Counted from the first letter of the stretch, positions 1,175-62,080 are shown. The stretch: DNA of 64,000 bases from Eledone cirrhosa (GCA_964016885.1 OZ024753.1:36084001-36148000), one strand, 5' to 3'. Program-made: numbers and translations. The notes: generated from the letters alone by a model not told the origin.

Positions 1175-4100
1175 CTTTAGAAAATAAAATAAAATAAAAT
1201 ATAATATAATAAATAAATAAATAACAATTGCAACAATAATAATGGTTTCTTATTTAGGCACAAGGCCAACAATTTTGTGGGAGGGCAAAGTCGATTAAAT
1301 TAGCCCCAGTGCCGCGAAGCATGTTGTCCAGCGCTTTAACGATACTGCCAAATAATTGTTTCTACTTTAGACACAAGGTCAGCAATGTCGATTAAATCGA
1401 CCCCAGTGTATTACTGGTGCTTTATTTTATCAACGCTTAAAAAAAAAAAAAAAAAAAAAAATTTTAACTCAATAAGCTATTAGGATGGGATATAGAGTAA
1501 AGATTTCGATAGTAAAGATTTTTTTTCATATAAGTCTCTCTCCGTAAGTTCGTTAAATAAATAAATCTCGCTACCTCTATTTTTCAATTTACCATTTTGC
1601 AATATTTTTTTAACTTAATTGTTTTTTAACTTAATTGTTTAATATATTTTTAATTTAATTTATTTCATCCTATAACTCACAACATAAGTTTAGCGTTCCA
1701 ATCTTCGGGTCACACATTAGACCATACAGACACCCACTATAGATTCTTTGGGTAGCATTCTTTTAGCGGCATTTTCTAACATGAATGTATTTTGACCCTT
1801 ACACTACACTTCTTTCTCCCTTTCTTTCTTTCTTTCTTCCCCATCTTCTTTGACGGGTGGTGGTAGTACATGATAGGCCTGCGCCCCCTTACCAGATGTT
1901 CACTGTTAGTTTTTCGGTTGCCAACACTTTGAGGGCAGCTGGCTGTGAAGCTAGTTGGTCAGCCGCCTTCTCTGTCTCTGGTTTCTCGGACCCATGGTTT
2001 CTCGGACCCATGGTTTTTCGGACCCATGGTTTTTCGGACCCATGGTTTTTCGGACCCATAGTTTTTCGGACCCATGGCTTTTTACATATTCCTTTGTTAT
2101 ATTCCAATACCTGATGATATCACCGGATTCATATGGAACCCGGTCATTGCAATGATCATAGTATAATAAACCTTTCAAGGATTTACACCAGTCCAGCCTC
2201 CTGTTACTTCATTTATATATAATATATATATATATATTATATATATATATATATATATTATATACATATATATATTATATACATATATATATTATATATA
2301 TATATATATATACATATATATTATATACATATATATATTATATATATATATATATACATATTATATATATATACATATATATTATATACATATATATATT
2401 ATATATATATACATATATATATACATATATATACATATATATACATATACATATATATACATAAATATACATATATATATACATATATATACATATATAT
2501 ATATATACATATATATACATATATATATATATATACATATATATACATATATATATATATATACATATATATACATATATATACATATATATACATATAT
2601 ATACATATATATACATATATATACATATATATATATATACATATATATACATATATATACATGTATATATATATATACATATATATATATATATATATAT
2701 ACATATATATACATGTATATATATATATACATATATATATATATATATATATACATATGGAGGCACATGGCTTAGTGGTTAGAGCATTGGCCTTGCAATC
2801 GAAAGGTTGTGAGTTCAATTCTCAGACCGGGTGATGTGTTGTTTCCTTGAGCAAGACACTTTATTTCACATTGCTCCAGTTTACTCAGCTGTAGAAATGA
2901 GATGATAGGGACTAGGGTCCATATCATTCCACTGCAAAGTGGTCGTGGAGGTGCCACGGCAAAAAAAGCACCCAGCACTCACTGTAAATGAGGTTGGTGT
3001 TAGGAAGGGCATCCAGCTGTAGAAATCAAGCCAGAATCAGTTCCCGTCCCACCCCTGCAAGCAGGGAAAAGCGGACGTAAAATGATGATGATGATATATA
3101 TATATACATATATATATATATGCATATATATATATATATATATATATATATATATATATATGCATATATATATATACATATATATATATATATATATACA
3201 TATATATATAGATAAATATATATATATACATATATATATATATAGATAAATATATATATACATATATATATACATATCTCTATATATATATACATATATA
3301 TATATATATACATATACATATATATATACATCTATATATTATATACATATATATATTATATATATATACATATACATATACATATATATATACATATATA
3401 TATATATACATATATACATATATATATATACATATATATATACATATATATACATATATATACATATACATATATATACATAAATATACATATATATATA
3501 CATATATATACATATATATATATATACATATATATACATATATATATATATACATATATATACATATATATACATATATATACATATATATACATATATA
3601 TACATATATATACATATATATACATATATATACATATATATACATATATATACATATATATATATATACATATATATACATATATATACATGTATATATA
3701 TATATACATATATATATATATATATATATATACATATATATATATACATATATATATATATATGCATATATATATATATACATATATATATATATATATA
3801 TGCATATATATATATACATATATATATATATATATATACATATATATATATATAGATAAATATATATATATACATATATATATATATAGATAAATATATA
3901 TATACATATATATATATATAGATAAATATATATATACATATATATATATATAGATAAATATATATATACATATATATATACATATCTCTATATATATATA
4001 TACATATATATATATATATACATATACATATATATATACATATATATATATATATATATACATATATATATATACATATACATATATATATACATATATA

Positions 4101-7100
4101 TATACATATATACATATATACATATATATATATATATACATATATATATACATATATATATACATATATATACATATATATACATATATATATATACATA
4201 TAAATACATACATATATATACATATGAGGTATCCTCTTGATAAGTCGGCAGACCTCGCAGGGACTCTATATCTTTATGATGTATTGTTTTTGTTTATGCC
4301 ACGAAACTACGTAGTCGAGGAATTTAGGAGCAGTTTAGGTATGATACATTTCATTACTAATTATATCTAAATGTTTCTTCTCTCTTCATAATGTATTTTA
4401 CATATATATACATATAAATACATACATATATATACATATAAATACATATAAATACATACATATATATACATATAAATACATATAAATACATACATATATA
4501 TACATATAAATACATATAAATACATACATATATATACATATAAATACATATAAATACATACATATATATACATATAAATACATACATATATATATATATA
4601 CATATATATACATATATATATATACATATATATATATACATATATACACATATATATATATACATATATATACATATATATATATACATATATATACATA
4701 TATATATATACATATATACACATATATATATATATACATATATATACATATATATATATATACATATATATACATATATATATATACATATATATACATA
4801 TATATATATATACATATATATACATACATATATATATATATACATATATATACATATATATATATACATATATATATATTGTTATATTTGGGGAGGGTCA
4901 TATTTGCGTAATATTGCCAGAATTAATAACAGAACACACTCACTGTTTGGTTCGCAGATATATATATATAAAAGACAGCGAGAAGCGAAAACCAACCAAA
5001 CAGTGAGTGTGTTCTGTTATTAATTCTGGCAATATTACGCAAATATGACCCTCCCCAAATATAACAATATCTGTTTCGACACACGATTTCATATAAAAAA
5101 CCTCGCAAAACTAATTCATATATATATACATATATATATATACATATATATATATACATATATATATATGTATACATATATATACATATATATATATACA
5201 TATATATATATATACATATATATATATATATATACATATGTATACATATATATATATATATACATACATATATATATACATATATATATATATATACATA
5301 CATATATATATACATATATATATATATACATATCTATATACATATATATATATATATATATACATATATATATACATATATATATATATACATATATATA
5401 CATATATATATATATATACATATATACATATACATATATATATATATAAATATATATATATGCATATGTATATACATATATATACATATATATATACATA
5501 TATATACATATATATATACATATATATATATACATATATATATATACATATATATATACATATATATATACATATATATATACATATATATATATGTATA
5601 TATATATGTATATATATATATATATATATATATACATATACACATATATACATACACATATATGCACACATTTATACATATATACACATATATACACAAA
5701 TACATATCATACACCTATATAAACATATATATATATATACACACACATATATATATATATATATATATATATATACACATATATACACATATATACATAC
5801 ATATATATACATATATACACATATATACATATATACACATATATACACATGTATACACATGTATACATATATACACACATATACGCATATATATACACAT
5901 ATATATATGTGCATATACACATATATATACATACATACATACATATATACGCATATACACATATATATATATACATATATACGCTTATACACATATATAT
6001 ATACATATATATATATATATATACACACACACACCTACATATATATATATATGTTAAGTATTTCCGAAGAAAAAGCAAAGGAAGCAAGAGTGTTCTATGT
6101 ATAGAAGAGAGCTATTTAATTAGAAAGTGAACAGCACAATAGATAACTACTCCATTACCAAAGGTTTCAGGACCCGGGACAATATTAACAAACGTCTGGG
6201 TCGTTCATCTGTCTGATGAAACCTTTGGTAATGGAGTAGTTACATATTGTATTGTTCACTATCTAAAGATATATATATATATATATATATATATATATAT
6301 ATATATATATATATATATATATATATATATATATATATATATATATATATATATATATATATATATATATATATATATATATATATATATATATATATAT
6401 ATATATATGGAGGCACATGGCTTAGTGGTTAGAGCATTTGCCTTGCAATCGAAAGATTGTGAGTTCAATTCTCAGACCGGGTGATGTGTTGTTTCCTTGA
6501 GCAAGACACTTTATTTCACATTGCTCCAGTTTACTCAGCTGTAGAAATGAGATGATAGGGTCTGGGGTCCCTATCATTCCACTGCAAAATGGTCGTGGAG
6601 GTGTCACACCAAAAAAGCACCCAGCACTCACTGTAAATGAGGTTGGTGTTAGGAAGGGCATCCAGCTGTAGAAATCAGTTCTTGTCCTACCCTTGCTAGC
6701 AGGGAAAAGCGGACGTAAAATGAAATGATGATGATGAATGATGATATATATTTAGATATATAGCAATGTAATATTGAAACAGTGTACGTACTACAATCTG
6801 AACTTTCGTCTGTGCCACCTGGACAGTCAGATTTACCATCACAGATCTTATTCTGAGGTATACAGATTTGGTGTCCTCCACTACATTCCCATTCCTGGTA
6901 TCTACAATGGAATGTTGGACTTGCTAAAATAAAACAAACAGAAAACTAATAAACAAACCATTTATAACAACAAAAGTAAGCATAATTATATCTTAAATAA
7001 TATGTCTTTAGTGAACATAGCCTTGGTTGGGAAACAGCCTTGGTTGGGAGACAGCCTTGGTTGGGAAACAGCCTTGGTCGGGAGACAACCTTGGTCGGGA

Positions 7101-61656: not shown

Positions 61657-62080
61657 GATATATATAAAAATAAATAGTAGAAAGGAAAAAGATTTTTTCA
61701 GTGAAATATCAAAATTTATTTACGATACCGGTTTCAGCATTAATAACAACATTTTTTACCATTATTATTATTATCACTATTGACAACATGCTTTGTAGCA
61801 CAGAGTTACGCCCCTTTCTGATCTGAGTTCAACTTTGCCTTTCATCCTTACAGGGTCGATAAAATAAAGTACCAGTAATGCACTGGGTAATTGCTAGCCT
61901 TGTGCCAAAAGTAGAAACAATTATTATTATCACTATTTGTACAAATATGCAACTTAATATTCTGCATATCCGCAATTGACAATGCATATAATGCTGAAAC
62001 TGGTATCGTAAATAAATTAATGTTTTGATATTTCACTGAAAAAATCTCAACATTTTCTACTATTTGTTTTTATATATATA
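61657..62080. mobile_element. Penelope-like inverted repeat (~85-bp arms) with a Nin-SINE inserted in the spacer
   Basis: Arms 61657-61742 and ~61989-62080; SINE flanked by the duplication attattattatcactatt. Confidence 0.7.
61972..62009 (+). ncRNA. Decayed minimal hammerhead motif, U3-A8 core
   Basis: gcaa-TTGACAA-tgca tataa tgct-GAAA-ctgg (ccgg in the left arm)-TA-tcgt, then aaataaa. Confidence 0.5.

Follow-up and report, generated by a model that had tools for sequence, protein, structure and literature searches.

What are the small hammerhead-like motifs scattered through a 64,000-nt stretch of the genome of the cephalopod Eledone cirrhosa (OZ024753.1:36084001-36148000; assembly GCA_964016885.1, genome 3.0 Gb), and does the unusual core that three of them share define a ribozyme class of its own? 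The whole of this stretch is referred to here as the window and all coordinates are counted in it, whilst L-numbers (L246, L148 etc.) denote stretches fetched from the genome. A preliminary description had proposed a single family of intronic minimal hammerheads at seven loci, numbered here 1, 2, 3, 5, 6, 7 and 8, three of which carry a U3-A8 pair in place of C3-G8. The best explanation, in which we place considerable confidence, is that these loci are truncated ends of Penelope-like elements (PLEs), together with ends of non-coding repeats that PLEs likely mobilise, and carry the hammerheads of their respective families. The motifs are real and the PLE link is correct; the U3-A8 class is also real and abundant but was already described, and this genome provides a new example of it.

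The layout attributed to these loci, running from stem I through the core, stem II, GAAA, a palindrome and UH back to stem I, is present in all eight coordinate ranges listed, in a damaged form in some. A strict descriptor that leaves positions 3 and 8 free matched the window four times (at locus 3 with its mirror copy, and at loci 5 and 6), compared with a mean of 0.083 and a maximum of 1 in 60 local dinucleotide shuffles. With a relaxed descriptor, five matches were obtained (loci 1, 2 and 3, the locus 3 mirror and locus 6) versus 0.025 per shuffle over 40 shuffles. The combination that marks a type I minimal hammerhead, namely a Y3-UGAN-R8-A core, GAAA, UH and stems I and II, is therefore found above chance. 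Loci 7 and 8 as they stand fail both descriptors, and locus 1 is likewise damaged, with the damage at all three belonging to the window copies and the layout being intact in their families. An Rfam scan of the window yielded no hammerhead among the best 150 of 288 matches listed, the list being swamped by TA-repeat microRNA matches. Together with the reverse transcriptase (RT) and GIY-YIG links of loci 3 and 6 described below, the layouts and shuffle enrichment bear out the identification of the loci as PLE-type minimal type I hammerhead motifs. Other parts of the initial account require amendment. The seven loci are copies of seven separate genome-wide repeat families, not members of one. AATAAA does follow or overlap the cut site at six of the seven, being absent at locus 2, but GAAA does not occur at every locus, as locus 1 has GCAA, private to the window copy (1/13 distinct rows). 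All the loci listed were found, although mirror arms at loci 5 and 8 had been overlooked.

Covariation of positions 3 and 8 was examined with both positions left free, and core combinations were counted, as had been proposed, in 80 evenly spaced 10-kb stretches (L091-L170; 800 kb), of which the four largest contigs supplied 75. The strict scan recovered 26 motifs versus about 1.6 per shuffle, comprising 20 C-G, 4 U-A, 1 C-A and 1 U-G, with the other 12 combinations at zero. The relaxed scan recovered 68 versus 2.0 per shuffle, comprising 55 C-G, 11 U-A (versus 0.07 per shuffle), 1 C-A and 1 U-G. Eleven of the 55 C-G matches belong to one array; in L140 (minus strand), 11 C3-G8 hammerheads are arrayed at a spacing of about 310 nt. 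A Watson-Crick pair occupies positions 3 and 8 in 66 of the 68 motifs, so the pair is kept, and position 3-8 is paired across families. Counted once per 10-kb stretch, the combinations become 23 C-G, 6 U-A, 1 C-A and 1 U-G (Fisher p 6.4e-5), in agreement with the earlier supposition that U3 and A8 vary together and not independently; this p value is no test of repeated evolution, because the copies share ancestry and the origins may number one or two. Across 1.68 Mb in total, a set biased to the families searched, all 15 multi-copy clusters have a paired 3-8 position (11 C-G and 4 U-A) and mismatched cores occur as single copies only. The descriptor misses some families, among them that of locus 8 and a C13 family described below.

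The three variant cores reported for the window (TTGATAA, TTGAAAA and TTGACAA) are present and are the norm in their families, not private changes. Stems I-III differ among the U-A families yet remain paired. By eye, U-A motifs fall into two groups. Loci 3 and 8, L096 and the C13 family combine a CCGG helix III with a UA site, and locus 2, L112, L009, L099 and L200 have GUC sites; the U-A families may thus have only one or two independent origins. The three window loci cannot be counted as three independent double changes, and the statement that their flanks and stems are unrelated does not fully hold for loci 3 and 8, which share the CCGG helix III, the UA cut site and a GCA/UGC stem II. Further U3-A8 GUC families were noted in L009, L232 and L099, and also in L112 and L200/L255; in L009, L232 and L099 the motif lies within a much longer stem I hairpin. 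A U-A core was present in 6 of the 80 stretches, which extrapolates, roughly, to ~22,000 places in the genome (8,000-49,000). The class is therefore abundant, as had been suspected, and would be missed by CUGANGA-based searches; since about one-sixth of the motifs (11/68) are U-A, a census of hammerheads in this genome has to allow Y3-R8.

Following the flanks outwards, as had also been suggested, led to RT and GIY-YIG frames for the families of locus 3 (L246) and locus 6 (L148). In the near-full element in L246, two hammerheads spaced by 4,677 nt enclose three frames, overlapping or adjacent, of 409, 532 and 233 residues; each hammerhead has the U3-A8 core and is identical to locus 3. The frames match RVT_1 (E 7.8e-07, just below the curated cut-off) and GIY-YIG (E 1.2e-07), whilst the two repeats have 97% identity to each other and 98% to window 13263-13472 (plus strand). 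This window segment, the long arm of locus 3, corresponds to a solo pseudo-long terminal repeat (pLTR) with its tail and contains the U3-A8 hammerhead at 13291-13328 (U3 at 13295, predicted cut after 13324); the short inverted arm occupies 13123..13263 on the minus strand, with the mirror hammerhead at 13199-13236. By eye, the L246 protein has GxKF, DKG, a CX4CxxC linker and CCHH residues. Neptune/Nematis elements are marked by a CX2-5CxxC linker, CCHH, DKG and GxKF (PMC8557442), and the locus 3 parent is putatively assigned to this clade by motifs. A Penelope/Poseidon label for the same parent was dropped as the motifs fit Neptune/Nematis.

Locus 6 (52512..52691, minus strand) is 93% identical to a stretch situated 1.3 kb behind an RT-endonuclease (RT-EN) frame with a CxCX5C linker in L148, the one copy with a frame, and its C3-G8 hammerhead lies at 52562-52628 (minus; C3 at 52622). 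L143 shares 270 nt of the L148 region upstream of the locus 6-like stretch, and a related copy in L022 has DKT and RWR. Locus 6 is the 3' end of a PLE that is Hydra-type by its linker motif. Used as a genome search query it returned no match, and local BLAST gave 7 matches in 4 of the 80 sampled stretches. PLEs are very abundant in this genome, with a PLE protein match in 30 of the 80 evenly spaced 10-kb stretches, 20 of these to two Hydra-type queries. A sister family related to locus 3, also Neptune-type, has a U3-A8 core in which GCAA replaces GAAA, i.e. C13, in 13/13 copies found (L249:3723 on the plus strand, L141, L142, L247 and L298), and in L249 an RT-GIY-YIG frame precedes it by 1.1 kb. 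In L129/L145, a long fold with a U3-A8 core that follows GIY-YIG frames was considered as a further candidate and was not confirmed.

The remaining loci belong to repeat families whose copies are dispersed through the genome. Genome searches scored 40 candidates each and findings on copies refer to the matches listed, among which many copies were present for loci 1, 2, 3, 5, 7 and 8. Locus 1 (2107..2164, plus strand; C3 at 2111; palindrome UGAUCA) is a C3-G8 motif with U-U at the base of stem II and, in the window copy, A13 changed to C at 2150. Comparison of copies places it within a young non-coding repeat of approximate extent 1450..2220 (plus), and no open frame occurs in the longest copy inspected (L205). 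Locus 2 (4232..4321, plus; U3 at 4237, predicted cut after 4316) has a U3-A8 core, a long stem II, a 10-nt palindromic helix III and a GUC site. It sits in a single, 5'-truncated arm at 4220..4395 (plus), flanked by TA runs. The arm spans positions 288-463 of a non-coding unit, 595 nt long, that occurs in tandem. TTGATAA is found in 65/68 rows of this family (duplicates included), and the unit occurs as monomers, short arrays and fold-back pairs. Consecutive units at 595-nt spacing each contain a complete type I hammerhead, with up to at least three full units in L050/L051. Locus 5 (33201..33251, plus) is a C3-G8 motif in the short arm of a fold-back insertion at about 32900-33320; its mirror arm (33039..33089, minus) is predicted to be inactive because G12 is changed to A. 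An older family related to that of locus 5 is represented by locus 7 (56488..56563, minus), also C3-G8, in which helix III is broken, as described initially, by an insertion of 20 nt (56502-56521). Most of this insertion duplicates the 3' strand of stem II in inverted form, and it is private to the window copy. Locus 8 (61972..62009, plus; U3 at 61976) is a U3-A8 motif of another older family, with U-U at the base of stem II and damage to the palindrome and stem I in the window copy, which privately reads CTGG where most family copies read CCGG. By eye, U3 and A8 are each present in 35/36 rows of the family (one truncated row dropped, some rows duplicate), and copy comparison reveals a truncated mirror arm at 61658..61742 (minus) that retains the 3' half of the motif and the tail. 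Directly after locus 8, two nested, hairpin-like inverted repeats occupy 62106-62340, the segment 62209-62325 being nearly perfect, and a similar repeat lies at 10715-10792.

The ends of the insertions provide information on how these copies were made. The hallmarks of PLE insertion, an inverted truncated arm, a tail at one end and a TA-microsatellite target, are found in the locus 2 and 3 families, and mirror arms occur also at loci 5 and 8. Counting from U3, locus 3 arms have their 3' ends in two zones, near +90 to +109 and near +169 to +177, and as the ATG is at +199 the long arms stop 22-30 nt ahead of it; 3' ends of the locus 2 unit cluster at positions 456-463 (14/32) and 29-36 (10/32). 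At the 5' side, 16 of 29 long locus 3 arms chosen by their 3' part (L285-L314 and window 13263) begin between -43 and -31 from U3, compared with a single arm that starts at the cut site and one more 2 nt after it. An apparent cleavage footprint at locus 2, from 2/36 ends selected by motif, was rejected, as none of 31 ends falls at the cut site in a set chosen by the 3' part. With no peak at the cut site, and with most insertions spanning it intact, most templates were uncleaved. Such a pattern would be produced by a ribozyme dependent on a dimer or a protein and equally by an inactive one. In computed structures helix III forms no hairpin alone, whilst the two-copy duplex is estimated at -8.3 (locus 3), -12.9 (locus 2) and -10.5 kcal/mol (locus 6), values that would support a dimer geometry at these loci and, weakly, at locus 5.

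The preferred account, in which the loci are truncated ends of PLEs and of repeats that these likely mobilise, draws on family membership, 3-8 pairing, the fold-back arms and their two fixed 3' ends, and the RT and GIY-YIG links of loci 3 and 6. A PLE protein would nick TA-rich DNA, leading to insertion into TA runs, and reverse transcription would start inside the RNA, near the start of the reading frame, a step suggested by the internal priming reported for an Anolis element (PMC11167929). The enzyme would copy the mostly uncleaved RNA leader back to its 5' end, and at locus 3 the outcome would be many solo repeats, about 220 nt long, that retain an intact ribozyme. The U3-A8 core would have arisen in one or a few ancestral elements, been kept for 3-8 pairing and been multiplied by retrotransposition. 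Cleavage by the hammerheads is predicted to require a dimer or the help of protein, and the genomic copies are likely passive. Several points weigh against this account. No PLE protein match lies within the window, and no autonomous parent for loci 1, 2, 5, 7 and 8 was found within fetched 3-kb loci, no dedicated genome search having been made. The palindrome of locus 5 is imperfect, with a computed duplex of -2.2 kcal/mol; a transcription start at -43 of the locus 3 family is at best a possible deduction from the ends; the Fisher test may overstate independence; and the fixation of C13 in a whole family implies that catalysis is possibly not the conserved trait in every lineage.

It could be argued that the U3-A8 motifs are dead or nearly dead, persisting as a structural or protein-binding signal of the pLTR, with the variant pair having arisen by stepwise drift in an AT-rich genome. 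The scarcity of starts at the cut site at loci 3 and 2, in sets chosen without the motif, and the C13 sister family are in keeping with this proposal, as are the findings that PLE hammerhead cleavage depended on protein and was dispensable for insertion in vitro (PMC11167929) and the low activity of PLE minimal motifs, including their dimers (PMC4209133). However, none of the 15 multi-copy clusters has a mismatched 3-8 pair, U-A families retain pairing in stems that differ, and U3-A8 hammerheads are reported, with reference to earlier work, to be active in vitro (PMC3088659); moreover, a ribozyme that acts only as a dimer likewise predicts uncleaved templates. On balance we regard inactivity as unlikely, though well worth entertaining. 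A fortuitous origin of the folds, by comparison, is refuted. AT-rich DNA often has TTGANAA and GAAA, and two loci fail both descriptors, but the enrichment over shuffles, in the window and in the 800-kb sample alike, and the two hammerhead copies that flank the PLE reading frame of L246 leave this idea with practically no credence.

The intronic setting of the loci raises the separate question of host use, for example in cutting a pre-mRNA, as might be envisaged from the conserved intronic hammerheads of amniotes. A receptor gene of LRP1-like type, with LDLa, EGF and YWTD repeats, has exons at 1041..51000 on the minus strand, identified by domain models and exon similarity. An LDLa, EGF or YWTD model matched 13 of 14 candidate exons scanned, arranged as two LDLa, two EGF, YWTD blocks, an LDLa cluster and EGF, and the gene runs past the left end of the window. 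Loci 1, 2, 3 and 5 lie between its exons, so the description of the loci as intronic stands for four of the seven; loci 6, 7 and 8, upstream of the first recognisable exon, may lie in intron 1 or outside the gene. A search of 53 kb upstream of 51000 by similarity to other exons found no exon, a method that would miss a signal-peptide exon. Intron position is no evidence for host function. The intact mirror arm at locus 3, which lies in the sense orientation of the gene, would together with the placement of four loci suit a host role, but loci 1 and 2 are antisense only, the sense arm of locus 5 has the changed G12 and loci 1, 7 and 8 carry private damage. Furthermore, the motif density of the window is within the range of the evenly spaced stretches (68 per 800 kb), and dispersed young repeats match its copies at 98-100% identity. 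Host use of the LRP1-like intron copies is accordingly very improbable, and the placement of loci 1, 2, 3 and 5 is likely incidental. Elsewhere in the window, long blocks of minisatellite and triplet repeats, with spurious long open frames, occupy 1-985, 6986-8023, 21009-26383 and 58073-60441; a remnant resembling a long interspersed nuclear element, with a PHD match, lies at 8507-9037; and 11252-12141, part of which was scanned without a Pfam match, is presumably a transposase-like remnant.

A more speculative extension, to which we attach only tentative belief, is that the 595-nt locus 2 unit is an expressed circular U3-A8 retrozyme copied by Penelope-type enzymes, whilst the Neptune-type C13 sister spreads with a crippled core. 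No RNA data set was listed as containing the 595-nt unit, and unit-length contigs from four runs that return after 595 letters can be explained equally by tandem DNA and by a circle. If the proposal is true, the locus 2 unit and the C13 family would together offer a natural test of the importance of hammerhead cleavage to PLE mobility. What PLE hammerheads do could conveniently be studied in the U3-A8 families, which are young and near-identical and of which one includes a near-full autonomous element. This value is practical only, and the U3-A8 core variant changes nothing known.

U3-A8 hammerheads are not a new class, U3-A8 covariation having been reported for natural hammerheads in 2011 (PMC3088659) and for PLE minimal hammerheads in 2014 (PMC4209133). 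For cephalopods, the literature search found no paper on U3-A8 hammerheads, although supplements may list such sequences or the A13C variant. Perreault et al. 2011 described the natural covariation together with a U10.1-U11.1 start of stem II (PMC3088659); the 3-8 covariation is shared here, as is this stem II start at loci 1 and 8, but the variants are rare there and fixed in abundant mobile families here. The closest parallel is with the Cercyon PLEs of Schistosoma mansoni, in which a U3-A8 descriptor gave about 1,300 matches (Cervera and De la Pena 2014, PMC4209133). Both systems have the type I minimal motif in pLTRs with U3-A8 for C3-G8, mostly lone truncated copies, some opposite-strand pairs and many sequence families per genome. 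They differ in host, in the 6-10 nt palindrome that forms helix III here, in the Neptune/Nematis-type linker of the locus 3 parent and in the higher, roughly extrapolated abundance in E. cirrhosa. Metazoan non-LTR (long terminal repeat) retrozymes (PMC7229834; bioRxiv 10.64898/2026.07.22.740005) resemble the locus 2 family in its head-to-tail non-coding units, each with one type I hammerhead, and its dispersed short arrays; the 595-nt unit contrasts with about 300 nt in retrozymes, and the locus 2 family, known here from DNA alone, is set apart by its U3-A8 core and long stem II. PMC6765202 is a further paper in this literature on PLE structure, dimers and retrozymes. In common with Neptune/Nematis and Hydra C-terminal-EN PLEs (Craig et al. 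2021, PMC8557442), the parents described here have RT followed by GIY-YIG, a clade-specific linker and a 3' hammerhead, together with partial tandems, an inverted truncated arm, a tail and TA targets, although the locus 3 tail measures about 60-70 nt against 30-40 bp and clade is given here by motifs only. Finally, the end zones of the locus 3 arms resemble the combination of internal start sites and tail reported for the Anolis PLE (PMC11167929).

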